A stretch of DNA of 64,000 bases from an uncultured Candidatus Saccharibacteria bacterium (GTDB lineage: Bacteria > Patescibacteriota > Minisyncoccia > Phycocordibacterales > CAIJYI01). The stretch lies in contig CAYPFT010000001.1 in NCBI GenBank assembly GCA_964410165.1, positions 38,341 through 102,340 on the forward strand, given 5' to 3'. Below are positions 5,386 through 64,000 of this stretch, one piece after another. The first letter of the stretch is position 1. Each line of letters begins with the position of its first letter. The notes under the pieces are model-generated. The model was not told the origin of the DNA. It worked only from the letters and a program-made list of their open reading frames with translations, and ran no database searches. The translations under genes and the position numbers were made by a program.

Positions 5386-5388
5386 AAT

Positions 5389-6345
5389 TTACCTCCTCTC
5401 ATCAAGAGCGTTTCGCATGGCGGAGATGACCTCAAAGAGATCCCCGACGAATCCGATATCCGCGATTTCAAATATCGCGGCTTTCGGGTCTTTGTTTACG
5501 GCAATAATCGTACCGGCATCTTTTATGCCTGCACAATGCTGGGGCGCTCCGGAAATCCCGAAAGCGATGTAGATTTGCGGAGCGATGGTTTTCCCCGATT
5601 GTCCGACTTGGCAGTCATTCGGTATGAAGCCCAAATCTACCGCAACGCGCGATGCTCCGACGGCGGCTCCAAGCTTCTCCGCCAATTGGAAGAGAAGCTT
5701 GAAATTTTCTTTACTGCCGACCCCGGCTCCGCCTGAGACGACAATGCGCGCCGATTGAAGTTCCGGTCTTCCGCTCGCTTCGCTTTTTTCGAGCGAGAGG
5801 AAACGAGTGTGATTCGGTATCGTTGAAACGCGCTCAAGCATGAGTATCTTTGCATCGCCGGTTCGCGCGACTTCTTTGAAAGATGCCATTCGAACCGTTC
5901 CGCACACATACGGCGCACAAACTTCGGTTGTTACAATGCAATTTTCCGCATATGCCGGATTTTCAAACACTCTCGAATCCACCACGCGCATGATGTTGCT
6001 CACTTGCGGGACGCCGAGAAGCGCCGCCACTCGCGGCAGAAGATCCTTCCCGAAAGAAGTTCCGGGAGCGAAGATGTGGCTATAGTTAAGCGCAAGAAAT
6101 ACGGAAACGATTTCCGGCGCAAAAATATTTGCCACAGGATGGGCATGGGCATTGTCTCTGATTACAAAAACCGATTCCGCGCATTCAAGCATCGCGGCTT
6201 GTTTTCCGAGAGAGTCTGCGTTTTCAGGAGTGGCAAATACCGCAATGCCGACTGTTTCCGCCGCTTCATGGGCGCAGGCGACCGTTCTTGCCGTACTTCC
6301 GTTAAGCGTTATGCCGTCATGTTCGGCGATTACAAAAGCTTTCAT
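5389..6345 (-). CDS. etfA: Electron transfer flavoprotein alpha subunit
   Basis: 318 aa, MKAFVIAEH..., with FAD-binding C-terminal region (SGAPQHCAGIKD...). Lies between etfB and ETF-QO. Confidence 0.85.
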   Translation of the reverse strand: MKAFVIAEHDGITLNGSTARTVACAHEAAETVGIAVFATPENADSLGKQAAMLECAESVFVIRDNAHAHPVANIFAPEIVSVFLALNYSHIFAPGTSFGKDLLPRVAALLGVPQVSNIMRVVDSRVFENPAYAENCIVTTEVCAPYVCGTVRMASFKEVARTGDAKILMLERVSTIPNHTRFLSLEKSEASGRPELQSARIVVSGGAGVGSKENFKLLFQLAEKLGAAVGASRVAVDLGFIPNDCQVGQSGKTIAPQIYIAFGISGAPQHCAGIKDAGTIIAVNKDPKAAIFEIADIGFVGDLFEVISAMRNALDERR

Positions 6346-7115: not shown

Positions 7116-7304
7116 TTTTTTCACCTCACTTATTTTGTTAATTTCAATGAAACAAGATGTTTCTGTACTTATCAGTAGCAATAAAGTATGAATATGTCAA
7201 TAATTGACTACAATGCGATAAAGTAGTAGCCTCGGGAAAGATATTGACAAAGAGATTAATTGCTTTGCAATTTTTCACAACCAGCAGAAAGAGGTATAGA
7301 GAGA

Positions 7305-8653
7305 TGAACAAAACAAGATTTGACAAACGCATTGTTTTCGCAGGTGCGTGTCGTACCGCCGGTGCCAGCGTTCTTACCGGCATTGGCGGTGGCGGATTTT
7401 GGAGTAACAGCGCGCATGAACTCATGACGACTTGTGTACTTGAAACTCTGCGCCGCACCAATGTTCCGATCGGGGATGTTGACGGCGTTGTAATGGGAAC
7501 TTGCATGCATGACCCGCGCGTGCTCAATGTCGGGCGCATTGTTGCTGTACTTGCGGGACTTCCCGAAGAAATTCGCGAATCGTTTTTCCTCGGCGAGTAC
7601 CTGAGCGTGGAAACCGTATCAAACAGGTCGCTTGCATCGCATGTGGTTGGCGATACGGTGAGTTTCAACTGCGGTTCGGGACTTGTTTCAATCATTAACG
7701 CCGTTCGTCGCCTTCTTTTGGGAGAAGGAAAGGCATACATTGCCGGTGGTGGAGAAAGCATGTCGCATGCTCCGCTTCAAATACCGCGGACGGCAAAAGG
7801 TGAAAAGCCGTACAGCCAGCGGGACTTTGTCGTCAAGAACGGGGAAAATCACGACCTCTTTGTCGCGATGGAAAACGGCGTGACGGTTACGGACGCATTG
7901 CTTCACGGTTTACGCGATCCATTTACCGGATTGCATTACGGAGCGACGGCGGATCTCGCCGCGGTAAAGTATGGCATCACACGTCGGGAACAAGACAAAG
8001 CGGCGGTGATTTCCCACTCTCGCGCGCGGAAAGCTCGCGATGCCGGGTACTTTGCTCCGCAGATTGTTCCCATACGGACTCGCGATGCGGAAGCGCGGAT
8101 AATTGATTTGGACGAAGGAATTCGGACCGACCTTACCGAAGGAGTCCTCGCTTCCCTCAAACCGTACTTCACCACGGACGGCACGGTAACGGCGGCGACG
8201 AGCGCTCTCGTTTCCGACGGTGCGGCGAGCATGCTTGTCATGACGCTTGAAGAAGCGCTTCATAGCGGCATCGCTCCGGACGCTGAAATCCTTGACTATG
8301 AGTTCGTGGCGGGCGACCCATCGTATATGGGCGTTGTCCCCATTCTTGCCATTCAGAAAATTTACGAACGGTGGGGATTTGGCAAAGATACCGAGAATCT
8401 CATGCATATCAATAATGCCGCTTTTGAAGCAACCAACTTGTCCGTCCAAAAGCTCGCAGAAGTTCCGAAGAATCGTTGGAATTGGTGGGGGGATGCTATC
8501 TCCGGCTTCGGTCATGCGGTGGGCGGAAGCGGCGCGATGCGCACGGTAGAGGGAGCGTACATGCTCAAATTCCTTCCGGAATACGACTACGTACTCGTTT
8601 CTTTCTGCGTCGGCGGCGGACAGGCGGTTGCACTGCTTATCGGGCGCGTCTAG
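7305..8653 (+). CDS. Thiolase (acetyl-CoA C-acetyl/acyltransferase)
   Basis: N-terminal nucleophile motif SFNCGSGL. C-terminal GFGHAVGGSGAM and CVGGGQAV thiolase signatures. Start at MNKTRFDKR with AGAAAGAGGTA upstream. Confidence 0.8.
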
Positions 8654-33307: not shown

Positions 33308-33535
33308 TAGGACTTACGCACTGTTGCGACAGCGTACGGTTTCGGCGAGGAATTTTGGTCGGTTTCTCCGCCTCTTGGCGGTGGAACCGCCAAAATTCAG
33401 CGCTGAAATCGAAGATTTGGCGGAGAGACCGCCAAAAGGGCGCGACCTGATTTTCTTGAGCGAAGCGATTAGAAAATGGAAGTACCCGTGTGGCAGACTC
33501 ACCGACCAAATCTTTCCCCAGTGCGTAAGTCCTAT
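33308..33535 (-). mobile_element. Family-1 MITE, copy C (~228 bp, inverted relative to copies A and B), ending 9 nt before the tatD start
   Basis: taggacttacgcactgttgcgacagcgtacggtttcggcgaggaattttggtcggtttctcc ... gactcaccgaccaaatctttccccagtgcgtaagtcctat. Confidence 0.7.
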
Positions 33536-33543
33536 TGAATATC

Positions 33544-34365
33544 ATGAACCCTCCTCTTTATTTTGACGCTCACTCCCACATAAACGACCCTCGTTTTGAT
33601 ACCGACATCGGCGAAGTCCTTTCTCGCATGAAAGAATCGGGAGTGTGGTCGCTTGTGGTGGGGACGGAAAAAAATCTCTCATCGCGTGCGGTAGAGCTTG
33701 CGAACGAACATGATGGCATTTTCGCCTCCGTCGGACTCCATCCGACGGATGACGCGCATGAGCAATTTGATGAAGCCTTTTACCGGACGCTTGCCGAAGA
33801 TCCGGAAACTGTTGCGATAGGCGAGTGCGGACTGGATTATTTCCGTCTCGGCGAAGAAGAGAGAAAAAAAGAAGAAGCAAAGCAGAAAACCGTGTTTGAA
33901 AAACAGCTTGAGCTTGCCGTTTCACTCGATAAACCGCTGATGATCCATTGCCGCAACGCCCATCAAGACATGCTCGGTATCCTCGGCTCAAAGAAGAAAG
34001 AACACGGCGAAAAACTCCGCGGAAACATCCACTTTTTTTCGGAAGGTCCGGAAACCGCAAAAAAGTATTTTGACCTTGATTTCACGATCTCATTCACGGG
34101 TGTTATCACCTTCGCGAGAGAGTATGATGAAACCATCCGCTACGCTCCACTTGACCTCATCCTCTCCGAAACCGATTGCCCGTATGTTGCCCCGGCTCCG
34201 TATCGCGGCAAACGCAATGAACCCGCTTATGTTGTTGAGGTGGTCAAAAAGATTACTGAGATCCGCGGCGAAGATTTCGAAACCGTCCGCGAGCAGTTGG
34301 TCAAAAATGCCCTGCGGGTGTTCGGGATTCGCGAAACAAAATTTGACAAGAATACTAGTATGTGA
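33544..34365 (+). CDS. tatD: TatD-family metal-dependent hydrolase (DNase)
   Basis: FDAHSHIN...GLHP...GECGLDY...HCR...FSG TatD motifs. Confidence 0.85.
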   Translation: MNPPLYFDAHSHINDPRFDTDIGEVLSRMKESGVWSLVVGTEKNLSSRAVELANEHDGIFASVGLHPTDDAHEQFDEAFYRTLAEDPETVAIGECGLDYFRLGEEERKKEEAKQKTVFEKQLELAVSLDKPLMIHCRNAHQDMLGILGSKKKEHGEKLRGNIHFFSEGPETAKKYFDLDFTISFTGVITFAREYDETIRYAPLDLILSETDCPYVAPAPYRGKRNEPAYVVEVVKKITEIRGEDFETVREQLVKNALRVFGIRETKFDKNTSM

Positions 34366-34400
34366 TAAGCTGAAAACCGGATAAGGATGCTTGAAAACAC
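34343..34400 (+). promoter_or_regulatory. Promoter-leader module 1 (TTGACA-N17-TAAGCT plus conserved leader gaaaaccggataaggatgcttgaaaaca)
   Basis: Near-identical module at 35302-35360. Overlaps the tatD 3' end. Confidence 0.5.
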
Positions 34401-34544
34401 CGCATATCAGCCGCGATTTTGGGACGACAACCACCTTTTTTGCCGTTTTCTTTTTGTTTTCTTCCCAAAACCGGGGCTGATTAGCTTTGCGGAAACCATA
34501 TTTGGTACCTCTTATGAGAGTATCCCAACTACAGGAGAGTTATA

Positions 34545-35075
34545 ATGAAAACAGACACAACCTTAAAAATTGACGAAGAGAAATTTCGGGAAGTATGCGG
34601 ATTAAAATCGTCGCTTAAAGAAACTTTTGCGCAAATGATTGCGGCAGGCACCATGATAGTCCACCCTGGTGTCAAAGTAAACCGCAACCGTAGTCCAGAA
34701 GAAGCAATCGGCGCTACGGGTCGGAAACAACACGTCCTCTCCGACAGTGCACTCGCAACCATGCCGCGAGGACAAGGCGAAGTCGTTGACCTCTACTATA
34801 TGAAGAGGGAGGGCTTTACGAGCGATAACAAATGGGAACAATATCTCAAAGAGCTCAGGCTCGCTCCCGACCCGTACGCCCAAGCCGCAGATAACGAAGC
34901 CAACCCATGTTTTGCCGATGAGCACCCTAACGGCACTCATTGGAAAAACAGCGAAGGCGAGTGGTATCTTGTCTCCTTCAACCGTTGGCACGGTGAGCGC
35001 GGTGTGCTTGTTCGCCGGAGCGATCTCGACTGGCTTGACGACTTGTGGTTCGGCGGGCGTGAGTTAGATCTTTAA
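34545..35075 (+). CDS. Hypothetical protein
   Basis: 176-aa ORF with AGGAGAG RBS. Followed by a strong terminator. Confidence 0.45.
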   Translation: MKTDTTLKIDEEKFREVCGLKSSLKETFAQMIAAGTMIVHPGVKVNRNRSPEEAIGATGRKQHVLSDSALATMPRGQGEVVDLYYMKREGFTSDNKWEQYLKELRLAPDPYAQAADNEANPCFADEHPNGTHWKNSEGEWYLVSFNRWHGERGVLVRRSDLDWLDDLWFGGRELDL

Positions 35076-35111
35076 TGTTTGCTGCTTTAGTCTTTTTTGT
35101 CTTCTGATCTT

Positions 35112-35147
35112 AGTCCTATCCCGATACATCGGGATAGGACTTTTTTT
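35112..35147 (+). terminator. Rho-independent terminator
   Basis: agtcctatcccgat-aca-tcgggataggact followed by ttttttt. Confidence 0.7.
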
Positions 35148-35301
35148 GTGTACACTGAGGAGGTAACCGGTCGCGGGTTTGCAACCCAGACCGTAATGTT
35201 TGAAATTACATTCTGCGGTAAATTTAAACATTCCGACTGGGTTACCAACCTCGTCGGGCGACGACACGGGTAAGTGGTGCGAGTACGGGCGAGCAGAAAT
35301 T

Positions 35302-35360
35302 TTGACAAACATGCCGCTATGTGCTAAGTTAAAAACCGGATAAGGACTCTTAAAACAGCA
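35302..35360 (+). promoter_or_regulatory. Promoter-leader module 2 (TTGACA-N17-TAAGTT plus conserved leader aaaaaccggataaggactcttaaaaca)
   Basis: Paralogous to 34343-34400. Confidence 0.5.
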
Positions 35361-35397
35361 TGATTTTTTAGCCCTCTTCTCAGAGGGTGAGGAGTAA

Positions 35398-36000
35398 GTG
35401 ATGAAACAAAAATTGAAGATTGCGGAACTTCACAACGATTACTACGTCCAAAGGCATGGTGAAAGCACTGCGAATATACGTCGGATTATCGTGTCTGACC
35501 CACAACGTGGAAAACGGAAAGAATTTGGACTGACGACATTTGGAAAATCCCATGCAAGAGGTATCGCAGGGGAAAATGAATGCGCCCTCGGACCGGACAC
35601 CGTAATAATAACCTCCCCTTTCTCTCGTGCCAAGGATACCGCCAAAATAACGGCGGATGTCCTCGGCGTACAAAAGATAATCGTGTCGTGGCGGTTGAAG
35701 GAAAGATACTTCGGGTGTTATGAAGGGACAACCAACGCCAATTATCAAAAAGTATGGGACGATGATAAAAAAAATCCAAACCACAGAAATCATGGAGGAG
35801 AATCAGTGAATGATGTTTTGAGGCGAGTGCGGGTTCTTATCACCAAGCTCGAGAATAATTACACGGGCAAAAAAATTTTGTTCGTAACCCATGGAGACAC
35901 CGGGCAGATTACGACGTGTTTTTTCCAACACATCGCCCCCCGTCATCACCGAAAATTGGAGCATCTTAAAACAGGAGAAATACGAAAACTTTCTCGGTGA
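35398..36000 (+). CDS. Histidine phosphatase family protein (phosphoglycerate-mutase-like)
   Basis: RHGESTAN catalytic motif near the N-terminus, and a C-terminal H (VTHGD). Confidence 0.7.
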   Translation: MMKQKLKIAELHNDYYVQRHGESTANIRRIIVSDPQRGKRKEFGLTTFGKSHARGIAGENECALGPDTVIITSPFSRAKDTAKITADVLGVQKIIVSWRLKERYFGCYEGTTNANYQKVWDDDKKNPNHRNHGGESVNDVLRRVRVLITKLENNYTGKKILFVTHGDTGQITTCFFQHIAPRHHRKLEHLKTGEIRKLSR

Positions 36001-36300
36001 ACATGATAGAGTGCGAACGGCGTCCGGCAAGGATGCCGTTTTTTGTACAAAAATTTGACTTCATTCGTCCTTTTTGTTAGGATACTCCGTACGGCTCGAC
36101 TTAGTGAGCTTTTGTTAAATACGTATAATTCCACCACAACAGTATTTTAGCCACTCGCACGAGACGGGGATTTTCGATGAATTGCACTTTTGTTTTACGA
36201 GGAGTTCGCGGGGTTGTATAGCAATACTACCCCGCAACCCCGCAGAAAAACAAAATTGCAAGGCGCGAAAATAACGGCTCGGGCAGTCTCTGTAAAATAT

Positions 36301-36651
36301 ATGACCAGATCCCTGAAGAAAGGTCCCTACGTGGACGAAAAACTGATGAAAAAGATCGAAGGGAAGAAACCGACGGATGTTGGCGTTATTAAGACGTGGC
36401 GCCGCGCTTCTCAGATTGCGCCGGAAATGGTCGGTTTTACCTTCGGCGTTCATAATGGACGCCAGCACATTGAAGTGCTTGCAACGGAAGACATGGTCGG
36501 GCATCGTTTGGGCGAGTTTTCTCCGACAAGAAAGTTTTTACGGCACGGCGGTAAAATGCAGAAAGAACTCGAACAGAAGAAAAAAGAAGCGGAAATATCG
36601 GCGGCAAAAGCGGCAAAAGCTTCAGGAGATTCGGCATCTAAAAAGAAATAA
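36301..36651 (+). CDS. rpsS: 30S ribosomal protein S19 with a lysine-rich C-terminal extension
   Basis: [20 protein letters not shown]...GHRLGEF. The extra C-terminus [29 protein letters not shown] is unusual. Confidence 0.9.
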
Positions 36652-36660
36652 TCTGCTATC

Positions 36661-37047
36661 ATGGAACAAGGAATCGCCAAGCTCGCAAATTATCGACAGT
36701 CACCCAGAAAGGTGAGGCTTTTAGCCGATATGGTTCGGGGGAAAGAAGTGGGAGAAGCCCTTACGGCGCTTCGCTTTACGCCGAAAAGAGCATCGCTTCC
36801 CATCATGAAGCTCATTAAAAGCGCCTTATCCAACGCACAGAACGCGGGAGCCGGTGCGAAAGACATTTTTCATATCACCGCCATAGCCGTTGACAAGGGC
36901 GTGGTACTCGCAAGACACATGCCGCGTGCCCGAGGAAGAGCATTTCCCATAAAAAAACGTTCCAGTAATGTAACCATTGTAATAGAAAAAGGCGAAGCGA
37001 AACAGAAGAAATCCAAAAACACAAAGGCAATAAAAACAAAATCGTAA
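36661..37047 (+). CDS. rplV: 50S ribosomal protein L22
   Basis: Typical L22 core with a K-rich C-terminal tail. Confidence 0.9.
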   Translation: MEQGIAKLANYRQSPRKVRLLADMVRGKEVGEALTALRFTPKRASLPIMKLIKSALSNAQNAGAGAKDIFHITAIAVDKGVVLARHMPRARGRAFPIKKRSSNVTIVIEKGEAKQKKSKNTKAIKTKS

Positions 37048-37065
37048 CCGTCTTTCGTCCCCGGT

Positions 37066-37093
37066 ACTTATACTAATCCCTTATACTTAACAT
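37066..37093 (+). promoter_or_regulatory. 28-nt motif acttatactaatcccttatacttaacat immediately 5' of the rpsC ATG (identical copy before fusA)
   Basis: Exact 28/28 identity with 41205-41232. Contains two TATACT hexamers; the second ends 6 nt before the ATG. Confidence 0.5.
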
Positions 37094-37777
37094 ATGTCTC
37101 ACACCGTTCATCCATATTCACACCGCCTCGGCATATTGCGAGATTGGAAATCGCGCTGGTTTGCGGCACCGGGAAAATATCAAGAATTTTTGAGAGCGGA
37201 CGTGCTTTTGCGGGAATATTTGGAAAAACGCCTCCGCGGATGCTCGGTGAGTTCCATTGACATCGAGAGAAACCAAAATACTTTGAAGATACTCATTAAA
37301 ACGGCACGTCCGGGAATGATCATCGGCCGAAGCGGCGAAGGGGCGGCAAAGCTCAGGAACGACATTTTTACGTTTGCCAAAAGACGCAAAATCGCGATTT
37401 CCGAGAATCTGAAGGTTGATATTGAAGAAGTCCGGTTTCCCGAAGCCGATGCCGTTATTGTGGGAGAAATGGTTGCGGAAGGTCTGGAAAAACGCATGCC
37501 ATTTCGCCGCGTCCTGAAGCAGACCATTGAAAAAGTTATGGCGAATCGCGATGTGCAAGGAGCGAAAATCGCTATTTCCGGGAGGCTCGGCGGTGCCGAT
37601 ATGAGTCGCGCCGAGCAGATTAAAAAAGGAAACATTCCCCTGCAGACATTCCGCGCGGATATTGATTTCGCCCGCGAGAGAGCTTATCTCCCGTACGGCG
37701 TCATCGGCGTCAAGGTGTGGATTTATAAAGGTGAAGTCTTTGCAGACAAGCCGAAAACGGCAACATCAAGAAATTAA
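37094..37777 (+). CDS. rpsC: 30S ribosomal protein S3
   Basis: KH domain and S3 C-terminal domain. Confidence 0.9.
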   Translation: MSHTVHPYSHRLGILRDWKSRWFAAPGKYQEFLRADVLLREYLEKRLRGCSVSSIDIERNQNTLKILIKTARPGMIIGRSGEGAAKLRNDIFTFAKRRKIAISENLKVDIEEVRFPEADAVIVGEMVAEGLEKRMPFRRVLKQTIEKVMANRDVQGAKIAISGRLGGADMSRAEQIKKGNIPLQTFRADIDFARERAYLPYGVIGVKVWIYKGEVFADKPKTATSRN

Positions 37778-37787
37778 ATTAACCGCC

Positions 37788-38210
37788 ATGCTCCTCTTTC
37801 CAAGAAAAGTAAAACATCGAAAATGGCAGACAAGCCGCAAAAACCCGAATAAGCCTCGCGTGGCTACCCGGGGCGTTACGGTTGCTTTCGGTGCGTATGG
37901 GCTGAAAGCGCAGAGCGTAGGCCGCATCCGGTCAAACCAGATCGAAGCGGCGAGGAAAACGCTCGTACGCACTATTTCCAAGACGGGAAAAGCGTGGATT
38001 CGCATTTTTACAGACCGGCCGGTAACTCAAAAAGCGGCGGAAGTGGGGATGGGAAAAGGGAAAGGAGATCCGGTGGGGTACTGCGTAGAAGTTTTTCCGG
38101 GGCGGGTGCTTTTTGAGGTTGACGGTGTTTCGGAAGCTGTAGCGAAAAATGCGCTTCGAAAAGCCGGCGCCAAACTTCCGGTAAAGACGAGAATCGTGAG
38201 CCGAATATAG
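37788..38210 (+). CDS. rplP: 50S ribosomal protein L16
   Basis: MLLFPRKVKHRKWQTSRKNPNKPRVATRG... Start chosen at 37788 within the longer ORF. Confidence 0.9.
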   Translation: MLLFPRKVKHRKWQTSRKNPNKPRVATRGVTVAFGAYGLKAQSVGRIRSNQIEAARKTLVRTISKTGKAWIRIFTDRPVTQKAAEVGMGKGKGDPVGYCVEVFPGRVLFEVDGVSEAVAKNALRKAGAKLPVKTRIVSRI

Positions 38211-38279
38211 CGCAATGCCGAGCAGATTGACGCAGAGCAAAAAATGCGCTAAAGTCATGGTTGCGGCGTAATGTATCAA

Positions 38280-38405
38280 ATAGGACTTACGCACTTGGAT
38301 GAGATTCGAGGCGAAACAAGGGTTTTTACGGAGATGTACTAACAGTACATTGACGGGAAAACCCGATGTTTCAACGACGAAGATCGCCAAATGCGTAAGT
38401 CCTAT
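38280..38405. mobile_element. Family-1 MITE, copy D (126-bp minimal copy) between rplP and rpmC inside the ribosomal operon
   Basis: ataggacttacgcac ... gtgcgtaagtcctat termini identical to the other copies; the internal sequence is unrelated. Confidence 0.65.
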
Positions 38406-38419
38406 CAAAATCAAAATCA

Positions 38420-38626
38420 ATGTCCGACAGTATTAAAACGCAAAGCGATAAAGATTTGGAGAAAACAGTGCTTGAGAAGCGCGGAGTTTTGCGCGATGCT
38501 CGATTTAACGCGGCCGGTTCAAAGACCAAAAATGTTCGCGAGCAAAGAACCGTCAAACGGGAAATAGCAAGAATTCTCACCGAACTTGTCGCGCGACAGA
38601 AAGCGGGTACGCAAAACCCAAAGTAA
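38420..38626 (+). CDS. rpmC: 50S ribosomal protein L29
   Basis: 68 aa, [20 protein letters not shown]... Confidence 0.85.
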
Positions 38627-38633
38627 TATTTTT

Positions 38634-38894
38634 ATGAAAAAAATACAAACACAGACCGAAACAAAGAAAAAAACTCTTCACGGGGTTGTTGTTTCCGATA
38701 AAATGCAAAAGACGGTCATTGTCCTCGTTCATCGTTTTGTGAAGCACCAAAAATACGGCAAATACATAAAACAGAGCAAAAAATACAAAGCGCACGACGA
38801 GGAGAATGCTTACAAGACGGGGGACAAGGTCAGTATTGAAGAGACCCGCCCGATTTCAAAAGACAAGAGTTTTAAGGTCGCCGGGAAAACATGA
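38634..38894 (+). CDS. rpsQ: 30S ribosomal protein S17
   Basis: [30 protein letters not shown]... Confidence 0.88.
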
Positions 38895-39012
38895 TAAAGT
38901 AAAAATTGAAAACGAAAAATGAAAAACGAAAATCCAAAAGTAAAAACCGCTCGGACTTTTTAATTTTTTCTTGTCGTTTTTAGATTTTCATTCTTCAATT
39001 TTAATTCGCACC

Positions 39013-39384
39013 ATGATTCAGCCGCAAACCATCGTAAAGATAGCAGACAACACCGGTGGAAAGATCGGGCGGGTGTTCAAGGTACTTGGCGGATCAAAGA
39101 GGCGGTACGCTCAAATTGGAGATATTGTTATTCTCGCGGTGCAGGTTGCGGAACCGCGCAAAGGAGTAAAAAAGAAAGATGTGGTGTCCGGGGTGGTGGT
39201 GCGCCAGACGCGGCCGTTTCGCAGAAAAGACGGTTCCTATGTTCGCTTCGATGAAAATGCGGTAGTTATCATCGAGAAAGGAAAGAAAGACCCGAAAGGA
39301 GGGCGAATTTTCGGGCCGATTCCGCGTGAAATGTCCGAACGCGGGTATCAGAAGATTATTTCGCTGGCGCCGGAAGTCGTTTAA
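39013..39384 (+). CDS. rplN: 50S ribosomal protein L14
   Basis: MIQPQTIVKIADNTGGK... Confidence 0.92.
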   Translation: MIQPQTIVKIADNTGGKIGRVFKVLGGSKRRYAQIGDIVILAVQVAEPRKGVKKKDVVSGVVVRQTRPFRRKDGSYVRFDENAVVIIEKGKKDPKGGRIFGPIPREMSERGYQKIISLAPEVV

Positions 39385-39470
39385 GAACATAAGACATGAA
39401 TCATGGAACATGAAACAAGCAAAGTGACAGATTGATTTATGTTTTATGATTTATGGTTTATGAATAACCC

Positions 39471-39776
39471 ATGCAAATTAAAAAAGACGACAATGTAATA
39501 GTCCTCACGGGCAAAGATAAAGGCAAGAAAGGAAAAGTCCTGCGTGTGCTTCGCGGACAAGGAAAGGTGGTTGTTGACGGTGCGGCGGTGCATAAAAAGC
39601 ACCAGAAAGCGGCAAAACACGGCGGCAAGGGCTCGATCATCGAGAAAGCGACTCCGATCCACGTATCGAATGTCGCGCTCATGGATCCGAAGACCGGCAC
39701 GGCAACGCGGATTGGAACAAAGATGGTCGGAGGGAAGAAAGTGCGAATCAGCAAGAAAAGCGGAACAGAAATATAA
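39471..39776 (+). CDS. rplX: 50S ribosomal protein L24
   Basis: KOW motif, MQIKKDDNVIVLTGKDKGKKGKV. Confidence 0.9.
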   Translation: MQIKKDDNVIVLTGKDKGKKGKVLRVLRGQGKVVVDGAAVHKKHQKAAKHGGKGSIIEKATPIHVSNVALMDPKTGTATRIGTKMVGGKKVRISKKSGTEI

Positions 39777-39784
39777 TTTACACC

Positions 39785-40330
39785 ATGCAAAATATAAAAG
39801 AAAAACAAAAGAAAGCATTCACCGAAATGAAAGGTACTTTCGGCTACAAAAACCCGATGCAGGCGCCTCGTTTGGTTAAGGTTGTCGTTAGTGTCGGTAC
39901 AGGAAAAGCGAAAGACCCGAAGCGCAACGACTTTATTGTGGACAGGCTTTCAAAAATTACCGGTCAAAAGCCGGCCCTTCGCGGGGCGAAAAAATCCATC
40001 GCGTCTTTCAAAGTGCGTCAGGGCGACCCGGTGGGCGTTACCGTCACGCTTCGCGGCGAGCGAATGCAGAGTTTTCTCGACAAGCTCATCAATATCGCCA
40101 TTCCACGCATGAAAGACTTCCGCGGACTTGAGCCATCCGCGGTGGATGAAATAGGAAACTACACCCTCGGACTTCGCGAACACTCCATTTTCACCGAAAC
40201 CGCGAACGAAGACTTGAAAGACATCTTCGGACTTGCCATCACGGTGGTAACCACAGCAAAGACCCCGAAAGAAGCCAAAGCATTTCTCGACATTCTCGGT
40301 TTTCCTTTCAAAAAAGCGGAAGTGAAATAA
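39785..40330 (+). CDS. rplE: 50S ribosomal protein L5
   Basis: Typical L5 (FGYKNPMQAPRLVKVVVSVG...). Confidence 0.92.
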   Translation: MQNIKEKQKKAFTEMKGTFGYKNPMQAPRLVKVVVSVGTGKAKDPKRNDFIVDRLSKITGQKPALRGAKKSIASFKVRQGDPVGVTVTLRGERMQSFLDKLINIAIPRMKDFRGLEPSAVDEIGNYTLGLREHSIFTETANEDLKDIFGLAITVVTTAKTPKEAKAFLDILGFPFKKAEVK

Positions 40331-40348
40331 CACCGGAAAAATATTTGC

Positions 40349-40621
40349 ATGGAAAGTTTTTCAAAAGTTAAAAAAGAAATGATGAAAAATCCGGAATTTC
40401 GCCGGCTCTACGATGAGATGGCTCCTCAATACGAGCTTATCAGTGAAGTCATCCGCAAAAGAATCGAGCGGAAAATGACGCAGGCCGAACTCGCGAAGAA
40501 AATGGGAACGAAGCAATCCGTCATCTCGCGCCTCGAATCCGGCAACGCCAATCCCACGCTTTCTTTTATGCGAGAAGTCGCCACTGCTCTCGGCAGCGAG
40601 CTCAAAATCTCATTCAAATAA
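40349..40621 (+). CDS. XRE-family helix-turn-helix protein
   Basis: MTQAELAKKMGTKQSVISRLESG HTH motif. Lies directly after rplE, where S14/S8 would normally be. Confidence 0.7.
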   Translation: MESFSKVKKEMMKNPEFRRLYDEMAPQYELISEVIRKRIERKMTQAELAKKMGTKQSVISRLESGNANPTLSFMREVATALGSELKISFK

Positions 40622-40648
40622 AAAAGCCCGCGTAACGACGGGCTTTTG
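40621..40648. terminator. Bidirectional terminator hairpin
   Basis: aaaaagcccgcgtaacgacgggcttttgg. Confidence 0.55.
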
Positions 40649-40672
40649 GGAAAAGGACTTTCAATTAAGAGC

Positions 40673-40930
40673 CTAACAAACCCCGTATGTTTCCGCATCT
40701 ACCACAAGGCGTTTGCGTTCGTCCTCATCAGGAACGACAGACTCTAATTTCAGAAATGAATCTGGATGTTGAACTAACCCCAAAAACTGGTACGCTTGTT
40801 CACACCGAGCGTCTTTGTCAAGATGAAGCCCTTCGGCTGTGATACCCGTTCTCCATGCTTTGAGAAGGGCTTGCGAGTCCCAGTCGGCGAAAGCCGCAGT
40901 TATATTGTAATCTGGCAGCAATGGTTCCAT
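40673..40930 (-). CDS. Hypothetical protein
   Basis: 85-aa ORF with AGGAG RBS. Confidence 0.4.
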   Translation of the reverse strand: MEPLLPDYNITAAFADWDSQALLKAWRTGITAEGLHLDKDARCEQAYQFLGLVQHPDSFLKLESVVPDEDERKRLVVDAETYGVC

Positions 40931-41204
40931 TTTCTTCTCCTAAAAATTGTGATTGAATTTAGTATGTACCGCTGAAAACAGTTTATCACAATACAACACA
41001 TTTGTCAACTCTTTCCACGTCACCAAAAATAGGGTAAGATAAATACATCTTTTAATGACCGCTACCGGGTCTTTTTATTTAGACAAGCGAGGAAGGAATA
41101 GGAGCTTGCTCATATTCCAGCCGAGTGCCGTCTAAATATGAGAATTTATTGCTCATATTTAATAAACGATGAGTAGAGAAAAAAGGGCGTTCGTTTTCCC
41201 TTAT

Positions 41205-41232
41205 ACTTATACTAATCCCTTATACTTAACAT
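41205..41232 (+). promoter_or_regulatory. Second copy of the 28-nt motif acttatactaatcccttatacttaacat, 1 nt before the fusA ATG
   Basis: Exact copy of 37066-37093. Confidence 0.5.
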
Positions 41233-41233
41233 T

Positions 41234-43381
<2,148 letters not shown>

Positions 43382-58482: not shown

Positions 58483-60168
58483 ATGAGCAAGAAAAAAGAA
58501 AAAGAAATTGTGGAAAAGAAATCCATTGATCAAATTGCAGAAGAGGAGAAAACAAAGAATGAGAATCCTACTCCACCAAATGAAGCAGATACGGCTGATG
58601 GTGAAGATGTTGAGTGGCCGGGTGTGTCGTGCATTCTGCAAGACGGGTCATTAGTCGAGATGTTGCATGATTCGGTAAAGCGGACTACTAAGTTGGCGGT
58701 GTATAAAGACGGCAAAGTAAGTCTTGAGGATAGCGTGCGGTTCGATGATAGGACGGTGTTTAAGCCATTAGCTCCCAATCAAAGTCTTCTTGAGACTGGG
58801 TACATTTTGTTTCCTTCGGAGGTCGGAGATTATCAAAGTAATGAAGCCCTGTATTACGAAGTGAGAGCGTTCGTAGATAAATATGTGCAACTTCAAAATG
58901 AGTTTCTCTCGGTCGTTGCAGTCTACATCATGATGAGTTGGGTATACGACAAGTTTAGGAGCGTTCCCTATCTGCGAGTGACAGGTCTCTGGGGAAGCGG
59001 AAAATCTAGATTGTTGTCGGTGGCGGGAAATCTCTGTTACAAGACGGTGATGGCGGGCGGGTCAATCAGTAATGCGGCTTTGTTCAGGACTCTTGATTTG
59101 GTGAAGCCAACTCTTGTGTTTGACGAAGCCGAACTTAACGAAAAAGAGTCAACTGAAATGCGGATGGTTCTACGGCAGGGCTACAGTGCGGGTACTCCGG
59201 TTTCGCGGATGGAGAAGTTACCAAACGGAAAGATGTATATCCAAACATTCGATGTCTTTGGTCCAAAGATTATCGCTTCTTTGGCTCGATTCCATGATGT
59301 TGCTCTTGAAAGTCGATGTCTCACAGGTTGGATGCCTCCACACATGGATAGTGGAAGACCCATTGAGTTAACCAAAGCATTCAAGGAGGAAGCGTTGGCA
59401 TTGAGGAATAAACTTCTGATGTTCAGGTTTAAGAATCATCATCTGATGAGTGCGGACGAGAGTGCGTTGGGAGGGATAAGTCTTCCTCGGTTGAAGCAGA
59501 CGGGACTTGCGGTGATGAGCGTGGCGAAAATGCTTGGGGTACAACCAATCGAAGATGTAAAGAAGTTTCTGGTTGAGTACGAACAAGAACTCGGTATTGA
59601 GCAAGCAGACTCGGTAGAAAATGACATTCTACTCTGCGTGTTAGATCTTCTTACCCAACCAGGAATCAGGTATGCGGGCAAAATTCGTACGGGTGTGGAC
59701 TTGGCGGAGAAGTTCAACAATCTTCACTATGAAGACTACTCAAACAGGGAGACGAAAGAGTACAACTCTAGTTCGATGGGGGTGATGAAGTATCCGGGGT
59801 CAAAAGTGTCTGCGAAGAAAATCGGTTGGTATGTGCGGAAGATGGGCTTTCGAGTGGATAGAGATGCCCGGGGCTTCTACATCTCTATTGTGAAGGAGTA
59901 TCCAAAGATTCGGTTGCTGGCGAAGCGGTACGGGCTTGATTCTCTATTCGAGCTTCCAGAGGGCAATCTCAACGGAGTGAAGCGAGTCGTGGACGCTGCT
60001 ACTAAGGCACAAAATTTGAAGGCGCAGGAAGAGCGGAAGCAAAAGAGGGAGCTTGAAGAGAAACGGAAGAAAGAGGCGGAGGAGAGGGAGCGAAATCGTA
60101 AACCAATGTCAGATGAAGAATACAAGGAGATCTTTGGAGAGAACTCTCTACCTAAAGATACTCTTTGA
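58483..60168 (+). CDS. P-loop NTPase, putative replication/primase-associated ATPase of the island
   Basis: Walker A VTGLWGSGKSRLL and Walker B PTLVFDEAE. C-terminal K/E-rich tail. Confidence 0.45.
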   Translation: MSKKKEKEIVEKKSIDQIAEEEKTKNENPTPPNEADTADGEDVEWPGVSCILQDGSLVEMLHDSVKRTTKLAVYKDGKVSLEDSVRFDDRTVFKPLAPNQSLLETGYILFPSEVGDYQSNEALYYEVRAFVDKYVQLQNEFLSVVAVYIMMSWVYDKFRSVPYLRVTGLWGSGKSRLLSVAGNLCYKTVMAGGSISNAALFRTLDLVKPTLVFDEAELNEKESTEMRMVLRQGYSAGTPVSRMEKLPNGKMYIQTFDVFGPKIIASLARFHDVALESRCLTGWMPPHMDSGRPIELTKAFKEEALALRNKLLMFRFKNHHLMSADESALGGISLPRLKQTGLAVMSVAKMLGVQPIEDVKKFLVEYEQELGIEQADSVENDILLCVLDLLTQPGIRYAGKIRTGVDLAEKFNNLHYEDYSNRETKEYNSSSMGVMKYPGSKVSAKKIGWYVRKMGFRVDRDARGFYISIVKEYPKIRLLAKRYGLDSLFELPEGNLNGVKRVVDAATKAQNLKAQEERKQKRELEEKRKKEAEERERNRKPMSDEEYKEIFGENSLPKDTL

Positions 60169-60508
60169 GGAAGTTAACTTCGTTCACATCGTTAATGTGG
60201 GGGTGAGGGTAAGTCATACTCTCACCCCTCTTAGCGTGTGTGCGAATCTACCCAAAGTTGTTAACACTTTTTTGGGATTATTAACCTATACATATATAGA
60301 ATAATGTGGTATAATATATTTATGAAAATAAAGTATCTAAGCCATATTTTCTAATCTTGTATGGATTTCGAGTCACTCAAAGATTGTGTAATCGTAGACA
60401 TGATTGAGAAAGTCAAAAAAATGACTCGGGATGAGCTTGAGAGTCGTGTGATCGATTTTGAATCTCGAAAAATCGAAACTCTCAAAACCTTAAATGAGGT
60501 AATAGATT

Positions 60509-62200
60509 ATGGAAACAAAAACAAAACTTAGATATGTAGCGTATGCTCGTAAGTCGACTGACCAGGAAGAAAAACAAATCACTTCCATTGAAGATCAGTT
60601 GCGGGAAATTGAGCGGATAGGTGCTGATTGTCACATTACAAAGAAACTCACGGAAAAACGGACTGCTAAAACTCTGGGTCGTCCTGTTTTTGCTGAAATG
60701 TTGCAGTTGATTCTGGATAAGAAAGTAGACGGGATTGTTTGCTGGAAGCTGAATCGGTTAGCAAGAAATCCAATAGATGGAGGGCAGATAATCTGGATGT
60801 TGCAAAATGGGGTTATCAAAGAAATCAGGACTGATGATGGTATCTACACTCCAGAGAGTGACATGATAATGCTTCACATCCACTTCGGGATGGCTCATCA
60901 GTTCAGTTTGAATCTCAGTAAGGACATCAAGAGAGGTTTACAGGGTCGTCTTCGTGAGGGAGTTCGTCCAAGTATTGCTCCTATCGGGTACATAAACAGT
61001 CAGTATCACATCAAGAGGATGGAAGAAATCTTGGTTGATGAGGAGCGGTTCCCAAAAGTAAGAAAGTTATTCGATTTAATGCTTTCTGGACAATACTCTC
61101 CTCTCCAGTTGGTTGAGATTGCGGATAAGCAACTCCATCTGGAAACAAGGGGGACGAAGAAATGGCCGAGAAAAGCGATGAGTAAGTCAAATATGTATCG
61201 GGTTCTCACCAATCCTTTCTACTATGGGTCGTTCGAGTTTCCGGAGGGTAGCGGTGATTGGCATGTTGGTAAACATAAACCAATGATTACGGAAGAGGAG
61301 TATGACAAAATCCAATCTCTCCTTGGTCGTGAGGGTAGACCGAGACCGAAGACTCACATCTTTGCTTACACTGGATTGATGCGGTGTGCAGGTTGCCAGG
61401 CTCGCGTGACTGCTGAAGAAAAATGGAAACACCAACAGAATGGGAATAGTCACCATTACATCTACTATCGGTGTACGGGTAGTCAGGGTCCAGAGTGTTT
61501 GGAGAAGTCGGTTGAGGTGAAAGTTCTGGAAAAGCAAATTGATGAATTTCTCTCTAAGATTCAGATTCCACCAGAGTTCCATGAATGGGCTGTTGAGGAG
61601 TTGAAGAAACTCCATGAAAGAGAAAAGGGTGATAGGAACTCGCTGATTGTGAAGCATGAGCAGGACTATAAGGACTGTGTATTCAAGCTGGATCAGTTGA
61701 TGGAGCTTCGATTGGAGGGCAAGGTTTCGGATGAGATGTTCTCTCGGAAGGAATCACAACTCTTGAAGCAGAAAGCAGAATTGAAGAGATTGTCTGATGG
61801 AGATGATAAGAGAGTAGATGACTGGTTGGTTCGTCTTGAAAGCACTCTCACCTTTGCGGAGAGAGCCAGAGAGGAATTCCAAAAGGGTGATATTGCGAAG
61901 CGGAGGCAGATTCTTACTGCTTTGGGGACTGAGCATATCCTCAAAGACCGGGCAATCCACATCAATACGGAAAAACCACTCCTTGTACTTCAAGAAGTGG
62001 TTTCCGAGAGCAATCGTCTGTTAGATAAGTTAGAACCTCCCAAAAGTGTTGGAAACAATGGGCGGATTAAACAAATCTATGACAAAAGTTCATCAATGTG
62101 GAGATGGGGGGAATCGAACCCCCGTGCAAAAAGGAATTCTCGCTCCTTCTACAAACATAGATTATTTGTTTTTGGTTTAAGTGGAAAAAGTAAGGAATAA
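60509..62200 (+). CDS. Large serine recombinase (resolvase/invertase-type N-terminal domain plus recombinase and zinc-ribbon domains)
   Basis: YVAYARKSTDQEEKQITSIEDQ catalytic-serine motif. The recombinase domain (RPSIAPIGY) and CxxC...C zinc ribbon (RCAGCQA...YYRCTG...C) are both present. The 3' end reads through the ssrA terminus. Confidence 0.85.
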   Translation: METKTKLRYVAYARKSTDQEEKQITSIEDQLREIERIGADCHITKKLTEKRTAKTLGRPVFAEMLQLILDKKVDGIVCWKLNRLARNPIDGGQIIWMLQNGVIKEIRTDDGIYTPESDMIMLHIHFGMAHQFSLNLSKDIKRGLQGRLREGVRPSIAPIGYINSQYHIKRMEEILVDEERFPKVRKLFDLMLSGQYSPLQLVEIADKQLHLETRGTKKWPRKAMSKSNMYRVLTNPFYYGSFEFPEGSGDWHVGKHKPMITEEEYDKIQSLLGREGRPRPKTHIFAYTGLMRCAGCQARVTAEEKWKHQQNGNSHHYIYYRCTGSQGPECLEKSVEVKVLEKQIDEFLSKIQIPPEFHEWAVEELKKLHEREKGDRNSLIVKHEQDYKDCVFKLDQLMELRLEGKVSDEMFSRKESQLLKQKAELKRLSDGDDKRVDDWLVRLESTLTFAERAREEFQKGDIAKRRQILTALGTEHILKDRAIHINTEKPLLVLQEVVSESNRLLDKLEPPKSVGNNGRIKQIYDKSSSMWRWGESNPRAKRNSRSFYKHRLFVFGLSGKSKE

Positions 62201-62491
62201 TCAAAATCTTTCTCCACCCTAGCTTCTTTGTTTTGAAAATAAATCGAAGCGGTTTATATTTTCTATCCCGATTTGTATTACACCCGTATCCCACCCTCGG
62301 GAGAGGAGAGATAAAGACGCCGGTTTACGCTAAAGCGAATCCGGGATGAAAAGCAAAGTATGGTGATACAACGCTTTTCACCTTAGAAGAAAGTTTTGCA
62401 ACTATCAGTTTCCTGTGCGCTATAACGGGTGAACAGGAGTATCCGGTTTGCAAAGCGAGAAGACGACTTCTTGTCGAAGCCAGTCATCCCC
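62098..62491 (-). ncRNA. ssrA: tmRNA (SsrA)
   Basis: 5' end GGGGAUGACUGGCUUCGAC matches the tmRNA consensus. Acceptor pairing GGGGAUG/CAUCUCC carries G3:U70. T-arm GGGGGUUCGAUUCCCCC. Resume context GAUAGUU-GCA followed by a 24-codon tag ending FALA-UAA. Confidence 0.75.
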
Positions 62492-62502
62492 ATGTTGTTG
62501 AG

Positions 62503-62933
62503 TATCAGGGAAAGAGTATCAGTATCAGGAATTTTTATCCATTGCTGATTTTACTAAGCCGGAGATAAGTCGAATCGCGAGACGAATAGACATATTGATT
62601 TCATTGAAAGTTTCCTCATTTATAAACGCAAGGTCTTTCGCCACAAGTAATTGGCTCTCTGTTTCAAGTAATGACCCTTTTGCTATGGCGTAAAAATGCG
62701 CCTTATCTTTTGCAGAATTTCTTCCGAAGCCTTCTGCGATGTTTGAAACAATGGAAATCGAAGCTCTTCTGATTTGGTTTGTTAGACCAAACCTTTCGTC
62801 CGGAGGAAATGTTTTTGTAATCTTATAAATTACCAGCACAATTTTCTGCGCTTCTTTCCATGCTTCTAAGTCTGTAAAATTTTGAATTTTCATAATCGTT
62901 TTCGTCCCTGATACTGATACTTTCCCCTGATAC
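62503..62933. mobile_element. Inverted-repeat-flanked cassette carrying the four-helix-bundle gene
   Basis: 28-bp inverted repeats gtatcagggaaagagtatcagtatcagg (62503-62530) and cctgatactgatactttcccctgatac (62907-62933). Confidence 0.5.
62525..62893 (-). CDS. Four-helix-bundle protein of the 23S rRNA intervening-sequence (IVS) protein family
   Basis: 122 aa, DLEAWKEAQKIVLVIYKITKTFPPDERFGLTNQIRRASISIVSNIAEG...KGSLLETESQL is typical of TIGR02436. Confidence 0.7.
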   Translation of the reverse strand: MKIQNFTDLEAWKEAQKIVLVIYKITKTFPPDERFGLTNQIRRASISIVSNIAEGFGRNSAKDKAHFYAIAKGSLLETESQLLVAKDLAFINEETFNEINMSIRLAIRLISGLVKSAMDKNS

Positions 62934-62949
62934 TTAAATTATCAACGTG

Positions 62950-63390
62950 CTACCGTTTCATTTCGCGCGCCATTTCGCGTTCCGAGTCGCGTTTTTTAAT
63001 CGTCTCGCGCTTGTCGTATTTCTTTTTTCCGCGAACGATGGCGATTTCCGCTTTGATTTTCCTGCCCTTATTATACATGGATATAGGTATCACTGTCAAG
63101 CCTTTTTGCCCCTCGGCGTCGGCGAGCCTTGTTATCTCGCTTTTTTTGAGCAAGAGCCTTCTGGTGCGGTCAGGTTCGTAGCTTTTCGGGGCGTTTTTGG
63201 GCTGGAAGGCGGGGATAGAGGCGCCGATGAGGAACGCTTCACCGCCACGGACGATCACTCGCGCGCCTTCAAGAGATCCGCGCTTCATTTGCACGGATTT
63301 CACCTCGAAGCCGAGAAATTCGACCCCCGCCTCAAATTTCTCGAGGATTTCGTAGTTAAAAGAAGCTTTTTTGTTGAAGAGAAGCGACAT
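62950..63390 (-). CDS. smpB: SsrA-binding protein SmpB
   Basis: NKKASFNYEILEKFEAGVEFLGFEVKSV...DRTRRLLLKKSEI...KGRKIKAEIAIVRGKKKYDKRE. Start chosen at MSLLF; the longer ORF reaches 63561. Confidence 0.85.
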   Translation of the reverse strand: MSLLFNKKASFNYEILEKFEAGVEFLGFEVKSVQMKRGSLEGARVIVRGGEAFLIGASIPAFQPKNAPKSYEPDRTRRLLLKKSEITRLADAEGQKGLTVIPISMYNKGRKIKAEIAIVRGKKKYDKRETIKKRDSEREMAREMKR

Positions 63391-63500
63391 AGGTATATAT
63401 AGTAGCAGGGAAGCGTGGAGTTGACAAGTAATATAAACTACAGTATACTTAGCTTTAACAAATTGTTCATCGTTAATCATTTTTTTCGGAGGAAATCGCC

Positions 63501-64000
63501 ATGAACGCGTTAACGCTTGTGTTTCTCGCCGTGCTGTTAATCGCCATTTGCTGTGAAGCAAGGCTGACGCATAAGGATATGAGGCAGTTACGGCAGTCGT
63601 ATAAAACCAACCTCGCCATGTTTCTTTTCAACAACGCGGCGTTGTCATTACTGTCGGTATCCTCGCTCCTCTTGGTGGCAGGAAACTTTTCTCAATTCGG
63701 CCTGTTGAATCTCGCGGGGCCGTGGAAACTTCCGTTGTCTTTCATTCTGCTTGATGTAACGCTCTACGCGTGGCATCGGGCATGTCACACCTTTGAGTGT
63801 TTATGGATGTTCCACAAGGTGCACCACAGCGATCATTCAATGAATGTGACAACGGCGTTTCGCGTGCATGTGGTTGAGGTGTTTTTGACGACGGTGGTGA
63901 AAGCGATTTTTATCATCGTTGCTGGAGTAGACGTCATCCTTGTCCTCGTGAACGAAACAATAATCACGCTCTTCGTCATGTTTCATCATTCACAGATGAC
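63501..64000 (+). CDS. Fatty-acid hydroxylase / sterol-desaturase-family membrane protein, 3' end cut by the window edge
   Basis: GGAGG RBS. Histidine boxes WHRACH and HKVHHSDH. Hydrophobic segments. Confidence 0.55.
   Translation, partial: MNALTLVFLAVLLIAICCEARLTHKDMRQLRQSYKTNLAMFLFNNAALSLLSVSSLLLVAGNFSQFGLLNLAGPWKLPLSFILLDVTLYAWHRACHTFECLWMFHKVHHSDHSMNVTTAFRVHVVEVFLTTVVKAIFIIVAGVDVILVLVNETIITLFVMFHHSQM

Follow-up and report, generated by a model that had tools for sequence, protein, structure and literature searches.

The 64,000-nt stretch of DNA analyzed here, referred to as the window, comes from an uncultured Candidatus Saccharibacteria bacterium (GenBank assembly GCA_964410165.1, contig CAYPFT010000001.1, positions 38,341 to 102,340 of the forward strand). 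The genome it belongs to is represented in the SRR4343428 and SRR4343430 assemblies. Two of its genes, one for ribosomal protein S3 and one for elongation factor G (EF-G), are preceded by the same 28-nt sequence, ACTTATACTAATCCCTTATACTTAACAT. One copy occupies positions 37066-37093 on the plus strand with the rpsC ATG (37094) immediately next to it, and the other lies at 41205-41232 on the same strand and ends 1 nt 5' of the fusA ATG at 41234. A reading made earlier from the letters of this DNA alone (the sequence-only reading) had drawn attention to this identity over 28 of 28 positions, which is confirmed by exact matches at both places. Pfam assigns the open reading frames (ORFs) 3' of the two copies to S3 (PF00189 plus a KH domain) and EF-G. 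No further match at up to 3 mismatches was found in the 64-kb window, 100 shuffles gave 0 matches, and the chance expectation is none. Upstream of the 28-mer a weaker similarity extends for ~18 nt, with 9 of 18 positions identical between the copies. The absence of a Shine-Dalgarno (SD) sequence was also correctly reported, although the neighboring ribosomal-protein genes likewise lack one. The ribosomal-protein gene starts of the window (36661-40330) and of three related loci (L071, L075 and L077; L numbers designate the loci used for comparison) show an 'AAUACC AUG'-like context in place of an SD, and many other genes in the relatives have a clear GGAG SD 7-9 nt upstream.

The 28-mer represents the outer arm of a family of short repeats that are dispersed through genomes of candidate phyla radiation bacteria (CPR; Patescibacteria). 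The core of this family is 30 nt long, TYCCT-NATACT-NATACT-WWY-CCCT-NATACT, and begins upstream of the 28-mer starts, at 37058 and 41197. Relaxed searches revealed two more copies with the same architecture (C and D), for a window total of four (A, B, C and D). The hexamer position N is T at the rpsC and fusA copies (T-type) and G at copies C and D (G-type). The 10-mer CCCTNATACT occurs 6 times in the window against an expectation of 0.15, each time within one of the four copies. The features around the first two copies are:

37058 to 37087, plus strand: copy A, a T-type solo arm reading TCCCC GGTACT TATACT AAT CCCT TATACT (nhmmer E=1.7e-7)
37088 to 37093, plus strand: the TAACAT tail; with hexamer 3 as a -10 box, this would correspond to the discriminator or the initial transcribed region
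37094 to 37777, plus strand: rpsC (S3), from Pfam
41197 to 41226, plus strand: copy B, a T-type solo arm reading TTCCCT TATACT TATACT AAT CCCT TATACT (nhmmer E=7.9e-10)
41234 to 43381, plus strand: fusA (EF-G), from Pfam

Copy A and its flanks, among them 10 nt after the L22 stop codon, occupy the entire 46-nt rplV-rpsC spacer. Its terminal TATACT ends 6 nt before the rpsC ATG, and that of copy B ends 7 nt before the fusA ATG. The last 6 nt of the 28-mer, TAACAT, lie outside the family core and are common only to copies A and B. As RNA both copies are unstructured (-3.4 and -2.7 kcal/mol, z > 0), and at gathering thresholds Rfam has no family match at either; the only Rfam matches in the window are the transfer-messenger RNA (tmRNA) and a LOOT RNA (RF03000; 56173-56288, plus strand, 72.7 bits).

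The extent of the family was determined in one scan of 596 Gb of species-representative genomes with the pattern TACTNATACTN{3,4}CCCTNATACT. Of the 70 loci recovered, ~55 came from a handful of CPR metagenome-assembled genomes (MAGs) labeled Paceibacterota, Parcubacteria, Nomurabacteria or Saccharibacteria, with a single Paceibacterota MAG supplying ~35 copies. The 15 scattered hits outside the CPR are in line with chance, for which a back-of-envelope estimate gives ~35. The search pattern leaves the seven bases upstream of it unconstrained; in the CPR hits these read T-Y-C-C-T-N-A with 73-98% conservation, and conservation drops abruptly after the last hexamer. A profile built from 59 copies and searched at E < 0.05 against the window and 55 CPR loci yielded 85 copies, 4 in the window and 81 in the 55 CPR MAG loci, all of them intergenic or overlapping a stop codon by at most 7 nt. 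They come in three forms: cassettes enclosing a gene for an intervening-sequence protein (IVP), inverted pairs without an ORF (75-80 nt), and solo arms, which make up 57 of the 85 copies and include those at rpsC and fusA. Occurrence in independent assemblies excludes an assembly artefact. A metagenome scan with a 23-mer core found 15 loci, none of which lies at rpsC or fusA or carries the TAACAT tail, and the exact 28-mer is therefore known from this window alone; the core repeat is present in the 55 CPR loci. A scan of viral contigs gave 5 chance-like hits and no link to phages, and the copies show no replication-strand bias beyond gene orientation (26 vs 19). In the literature on CPR promoters, leaderless transcription and repeats, searched also for the literal motif strings, no description of the element was found, and the family, related to intervening sequence (IVS) elements, is apparently undescribed. 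Our preferred interpretation is a portable repeat that carries a promoter (a 'mobile promoter') rather than a translation-specific operator, and we would put the probability of this reading at roughly 55%.

Complete members of the family are small selfish cassettes of ~430 nt with the architecture of a 23S rRNA IVS. In the window this form is represented by copies C and D and the genes around them:

62096 to 62491, minus strand: tmRNA gene (ssrA), directly downstream of arm D
62501 to 62530, minus strand: copy D, a G-type arm and the 3' arm of the IVP cassette (relaxed search and nhmmer)
62525 to 62893, minus strand: IVP gene, PF05635 23S rRNA intervening-sequence protein (E=6.8e-37), a four-helix bundle of 122 aa
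62905 to 62934, plus strand: copy C, a G-type arm and the reverse (5') arm of the IVP cassette, which lies on the minus strand (nhmmer E=2.2e-10)
62950 to 63480, minus strand: smpB, from PF01668 on L078, which is 100% identical to window 59525-64000

The minus-strand order is thus smpB, reverse arm, IVP, forward arm and tmRNA. Read on that strand, copy C lies 15 nt past the smpB stop and 11 nt ahead of the IVP ATG, while copy D shares bases with the IVP stop codon (TCC TGA) and leaves 9 nt between its terminal GATACT and the 5' end of the tmRNA. The cassette spans 434 nt (62501-62934), and its minimum free energy fold has a 30-bp terminal stem (z = -6.3); the two arms are complementary over 15 nt at 100% plus 16 nt at 88%. 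IVP genes were present at three of the initial loci (the window, L062 and, truncated, L037), and homologues 58-89% identical led to five more (L080, L081, L097, L098 and L099); all are flanked by inverted arms. A PF05635 ORF stands within the arms in the window and in L062, L080, L081, L097, L098 and L099, and no other kind of ORF was seen between arms. Beyond the window, 4 cassettes lie directly before a tmRNA gene and 2 at an unrelated TraG-linked locus. Overall, five genomes or contigs have the cassette between smpB and ssrA, and it also occurs at other intergenic sites. On the other side of the tmRNA gene lies a large serine recombinase gene (60509-62200, plus strand; 563 aa with Resolvase, Recombinase and Zn-ribbon domains). 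It converges on ssrA (62096-62491, minus strand) and overlaps its 3' end by ~100 nt, which suggests that an element is integrated at ssrA.

In addition to two IVP cassettes, the 85 copies include ~12 back-to-back pairs. In seven of the pairs the arms are 16-21 nt apart and the whole pair spans 75-80 nt; the ORF-less pairs fold as perfect or near-perfect hairpins (z = -6 to -14). In one locus, L024, arm pairs enclose each tRNA gene, leaving 5-8 nt on either side. The three hexamers vary in concert at N, both within a copy and between the two arms of a pair. These structures raise the possibility that the element works at the RNA level, its arms being halves of double-stranded stems cut by RNase III as in 23S rRNA IVSs. 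Acting in cis, such stems would release IVP, tRNAs and pre-tmRNA from longer transcripts; acting in trans, solo arms such as A and B would pair with complementary arms of other transcripts and so tie the fates of the rpsC and fusA mRNAs to those transcripts. The 26-31-bp stems formed by the cassette and the pairs, the bracketed tRNAs of L024 and the shared N type of paired arms all fit this proposal, as does the Coxiella IVS, which is cut in its stem by RNase III (PMC4990558). It also fits that in L097 and L098 a canonical promoter stands upstream of the whole IVP cassette plus ssrA, where the arm before ssrA may be only the 3' half of an RNA processing stem. However, the 64-kb window holds no complementary T-type partner for A and B; its only reverse arm, C, is G-type and would mismatch them at three positions. 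Moreover, the spacer triplets of both arms agree in only ~4 of 12 pairs, and many solo arms are partnerless within their 8-kb loci. We therefore regard an action purely through RNA as quite improbable.

In the solo arms the median distance from the front edge (hexamer 3) to the nearest gene boundary is 6 nt, and from the back edge it is 107 nt. The start of a protein gene is faced by 23 copies, typically from 5-23 nt away, and the 5' end of an RNA gene by 9, seven of these at 6-11 nt. Five tRNA genes have the end of an arm 6-8 nt ahead of them, the tmRNA genes of the window, L037, L097 and L098 have one at 9-11 nt, and in L021 a solo arm stands directly before tRNA-Ala (6 nt). In a distant Paceibacterota MAG (L053) a G-type arm lies 11 nt upstream of the fusA ATG. 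According to our preferred reading, that of a mobile promoter, the terminal TATACT would act as a -10 box for the housekeeping sigma factor without a -35 partner. Transcription would then start ~7 nt downstream, at the A of the ATG or one base before it, and the rpsC and fusA mRNAs would be leaderless or nearly so. The arm before ssrA and the arms before tRNA genes in related genomes would act in the same manner.

Several observations support this proposal. TATACT matches TATAAT at 5 of 6 positions, with A at position 2 and T at position 6. In the relatives, TTGACA-N17-TATAAT-N7-ATG, TATACT-N6-ATG after a terminator and TGgTATACT-N7-ATG before dnaX were all encountered, and at one orthologous site L062 has TATAAT-N6-ATG where L081 has TATACT-N6-ATG. 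Because -10 boxes are thus found N6-N7 from the ATG in relatives, leaderless starts are probably used in this clade. At tRNA genes without an arm, A/T-rich -10-like hexamers sit where hexamer 3 sits in the arm-bearing ones, a hint that transcription of tRNAs in these CPR genomes begins at, or very close to, the mature end. Armless tRNAs with -10-like hexamers 4-7 nt from the mature 5' end were observed in L007, L014, L017, L023, L036, L038, L047 and L060. Constraint on the core is also in keeping with the proposal: all 30 positions are identical in two independent pairs of orthologous loci with diverged flanks, and the blocks around a spacer of constant length are of the kind that proteins recognize. 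The putative promoter activity of the arms at rpsC and fusA is accordingly one that we rate as likely. The sequence-only reading had raised the possibility of an internal promoter shared by the two genes, with the second TATACT placed for leaderless transcription; that placement gains support from the RNA-gene arms and the relatives' promoters, while the idea of a regulatory site specific to rpsC and fusA does not hold up. A few copies (L030, L035 and L040) possibly carry a -10 box on the reverse strand as well (AAGTAT or CAGTAT), which would make them bidirectional promoters, but this box is weak.

Other evidence weighs against the mobile promoter. Copies A and B have neither a -35 box nor a TGn extended -10; CCCTTA or CCCCGG stands where the -35 box would be, and CCCT at positions -16 to -13. 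A consensus promoter scan of 36000-41400 reports neither copy A nor copy B. The window does have conventional -35/-10 promoters, and the same scan places one ahead of rpsS:

36055 to 36083, plus strand: sigma-70-type promoter, TTGACT-N17-TAGGAT with a TG upstream (consensus scan)

The operon therefore already has a promoter, in a genome that uses -35 boxes, and rpsC lies within it, needing no internal promoter. The ssrA arm of L097 and L098 need not be a promoter either, given the canonical one upstream of their cassettes, and that of L080 is degenerate: its terminal hexamer is damaged (GATACG) and a 45-nt insertion displaces it from ssrA. Finally, 37 of the 85 copies are directed at a convergent gene or tRNA, whose 3' end lies at a median distance of 3 nt, and in 11 of the 37 the stop codon overlaps the element. 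At least seven of these convergent copies can drive no annotated gene because they lie between a stop codon and an intrinsic terminator.

The copies at gene ends bear on a different possibility, namely that the element is a boundary mark bound by a CPR-specific DNA-binding protein, possibly IVP itself, on the two CCCTNATACT units. Gene ends would then be marked or insulated, with the bound arm serving as a polar roadblock or terminator for convergent transcription and its resemblance to a promoter being incidental. The conserved blocks of the core surround a spacer that is fixed in length (3 nt) and free in sequence, an arrangement that suggests a protein-binding site. In the 37 convergent copies only a few nt separate the front edge from a stop codon, which in 11 overlaps the element; back-to-back pairs are located between genes, and IVP is the only ORF ever seen between arms. 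On the other hand, the binding protein is only putative, and a second terminator would be redundant in the several reverse copies that precede an ordinary intrinsic terminator. The -10 distance of arms from RNA-gene 5' ends is also left unexplained, and we rate a boundary mark as very unlikely.

Copies A and B appear to be young. Five syntenic relatives were reached through S3 homologues:

L071: S3 92% identical; rplV-rpsC spacer 26 nt, T-rich, no element; fusA upstream without element
L076: S3 89%; spacer 6 nt, no element; fusA upstream not covered
L073/L074: S3 84%; spacer 41 nt with a degenerate remnant, AAATACTAATACTAAATACTTAATACA; fusA upstream not covered
L077: S3 81%; spacer 27 nt, no element; fusA upstream not covered
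L075: S3 80%; spacer 36 nt, no element; fusA upstream without element

The rplV-rpsC spacers of the five relatives (6-41 nt) thus lack a full copy, which amounts to presence/absence polymorphism at orthologous sites, and no other copy was found in 49 kb of these relatives. L071 and L075 share the window's gene order from rpsS to rplE and then fusA, which in L071 extends to the gene for pyruvate phosphate dikinase (PPDK), as in the window. From the lack of a full copy in relatives and the shared TAACAT tail, we infer that this lineage acquired A and B recently. The tail is similar to the relatives' native fusA leaders (aaacat) and not to their rpsC leaders, so copy A was probably copied from copy B, that is, from the region upstream of fusA. 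The N type also differs at orthologous sites, being T at fusA here and G in L053, and G at ssrA here and T in L037. One possible explanation of such switches is gene conversion among the copies.

The alternative offered by the sequence-only reading was an operator through which S3, EF-G or another translation factor would co-regulate rpsC and fusA. Two translation genes of the window carry the element, and elsewhere arms occur at fusA, rpsH and tRNA or tmRNA genes. However, the genes adjoining copies, named by reading their N-terminal translations, also include dnaX, ndk, comM, a glmM-like (phosphomannomutase-like) gene, a pilin gene and an ABC ATPase/transporter gene. Since copies adjoin genes of every kind, in both orientations, and also point into gene ends, the family is not tied to translation. 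Further copies instead belong to a longer repeat system of inverted-arm cassettes and hairpin pairs beside unrelated genes, the outcome that the sequence-only reading had itself named as a refutation. A translational operator is excluded at the tRNA and tmRNA arms because those genes are non-coding, a full copy is missing at both sites in close relatives, and neither RNA structure nor an Rfam ribosomal-leader match supports a leader at A and B. The binding-site proposal has accordingly been abandoned as highly improbable.

Another view is that the repeat is neutral or selfish, arms A and B being tolerated insertions or conversions in short spacers. Transcripts from the rpsS promoter would then run through the arm into rpsC, fusA would depend on a promoter lying further upstream, and TATACT would be close to the ATG only because the spacers are compact. 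Close relatives are polymorphic for copies and function without them, the repeat occurs in both orientations beside any type of gene, many copies lie where a promoter would be useless, and the -35 box is absent. Moreover, as copies A and B are unstructured as RNA, they would not hinder translation if transcribed through. What this view fails to accommodate is that the core is identical at 30 of 30 positions in two independent orthologous locus pairs whose flanks are only 56-85% identical, that the front edge is tight to gene boundaries and the back edge loose (median 6 vs 107 nt), and that placement 6-11 nt before RNA-gene 5' ends recurs. We consider neutrality unlikely, though ahead of the other rival readings. 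A broader and frankly speculative idea, which we also think unlikely, combines several of the elements above: IVS-type cassettes would constitute an active mobile or gene-converting CPR system whose arms are dual-purpose. In the DNA they would serve as portable -10 promoters, with tRNA, tmRNA and mRNA synthesis beginning on or beside the mature 5' end or the start codon. In the RNA, paired arms would fold into processing stems for RNase III and so punctuate the transcripts, and IVP would bind or spread the arms.

Other candidate identities were tried and rejected. The reverse complement, AGTATAAGGGA...TAAGGAA, was dismissed as a general SD for the gene behind, its distance to the ATG ranging from 0 to 31 nt and many reverse copies being followed by a terminator instead. 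A DNA uptake sequence does not fit the low copy number (4 in 64 kb) or the intergenic rather than coding location. Integron attC sites, Xer/dif modules and target sites of diversity-generating retroelements are disfavored by the direct rather than inverted sub-repeats, the low copy number and the absence of an integrase or reverse transcriptase nearby. When the flanks of pairs and solo arms were read by eye, no consistent direct repeat indicative of a target-site duplication was seen.

Some further features of the copies and their surroundings were recorded. In two Saccharibacteria MAGs (L031, 5774-5815; L042) the dnaX arm is followed by an extra CCCCTTATACT / CACCCCTCACACT unit at ~18 nt spacing and then, 6-7 nt from the dnaX ATG, by a separate box reading TATAAT or TGgTATACT; in L030 the arm has the opposite orientation, 3 nt from the dnaX ATG. 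DnaA-box-like nine-mers (TTATCCACA / TGTGGATAA) occur within 20 nt of the front edge after several forward arms (L025, L047, L062 and L081). Repeats resembling tRNA 5' halves (GGGCGGTTAGCTGTTTTGGCTGATAACGCCGAG) were seen upstream of tRNA-Val/tRNA-Thr in L014 (7700-7872, where they are in tandem), L007 (~7300-7360) and L063 (~5356-5400). Inside the fusA coding region ARAGORN calls a 94-nt 'tRNA-Lys' (43210-43303, plus strand), in all likelihood a false positive. The S10/spc cluster is truncated and rearranged (window 33535-43381; L071; L075), beginning at rpsS and ending at rplE, then fusA. Before rpsS stand a TatD gene, an unannotated ORF and a histidine phosphatase gene, and in the window a helix-turn-helix gene precedes fusA. 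Unrelated hairpins and tandem repeats are present in other spacers of the cluster: a 19-nt inverted repeat between rplP and rpmC (38280-38405), an A/T-rich palindrome between rpsQ and rplN (38895-39012) and tandem TGATTTATGNTTTA between rplN and rplX (39385-39460). The equivalent spacers of relatives contain tandem ATAAATC x4 and AAAGCTA x4.

Almost nothing is known about how CPR transcripts start, end and are processed, and a 30-nt element present across several CPR groups offers a concrete handle on their promoters and RNA processing. The repeat may also be relevant to how 23S-rRNA-type intervening sequences arose and spread, which is still unexplained. For annotation, the lesson is that identical upstream motifs of this kind should not be taken as regulons of the neighboring genes. 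Were the dual-purpose idea true, it would give the long-orphan 'IVS protein' family a function and explain how streamlined CPR genomes distribute promoters and processing sites.

The family was compared with several known systems. Ribosomal-protein autoregulatory leaders differ from copies A and B, which show no conserved structured RNA and are absent from close relatives. The closest structural counterpart of the cassette is the Coxiella IVS, which is 428 nt long with a 28-bp terminal stem cut by RNase III and an S23p/PF05635 ORF (PMC4990558). The window cassette is like the 23S rRNA IVSs of Coxiella burnetii and Leptospira in size, terminal stem (~30 bp) and ORF family, and both are regarded as selfish and sporadically distributed. 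In contrast to them, it lies outside 23S rRNA, between smpB and ssrA in a window without rRNA, and the CPR arms have spread as ORF-less pairs and solo arms. The CPR arms also end in -10-like hexamers, and copies A and B are single arms, not IVSs.

Among intergenic repeats, Correia repeat-enclosed elements of Neisseria and other miniature inverted-repeat transposable elements (MITEs) have ~26-nt inverted repeats, outward promoter boxes and RNase III hairpins, and vary between strains. The CPR repeat is like them in its terminal inverted repeats around a short non-coding body and in its presence/absence polymorphism. It differs in that no TA or other target-site duplication was seen, solo arms are common and the ORF-bearing form encodes IVP and not a known transposase; phylum and sequence differ as well. 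Repetitive extragenic palindromic (REP) sequences and the bacterial interspersed mosaic elements (BIMEs) they form are short extragenic repeats, often in inverted pairs and commonly just past stop codons. The REP unit is palindromic, whereas a single CPR arm has no self-complementarity (z > 0), and no transposase of the RAYT type was seen with the CPR repeat.

With regard to promoters, -10-only promoters giving leaderless mRNAs are found in Actinobacteria and Deinococcus, and the CPR arms are like them in having TANNNT 6-7 nt before a start codon and no SD. In contrast to those promoters, the hexamer here is embedded in a 30-nt conserved repeat bearing two further copies of itself, the source genome also uses -35/-10 promoters, and relatives use GGAG SD sequences. 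Putative mobile promoters, reportedly described by Matus-Garcia et al. in 2012, are identical upstream segments before unrelated genes. The CPR segment differs from these in being part of a larger repeat system with non-promoter contexts, and its promoter activity is putative, but copies A and B resemble them as near-identical segments with promoter boxes directly upstream of non-homologous genes.

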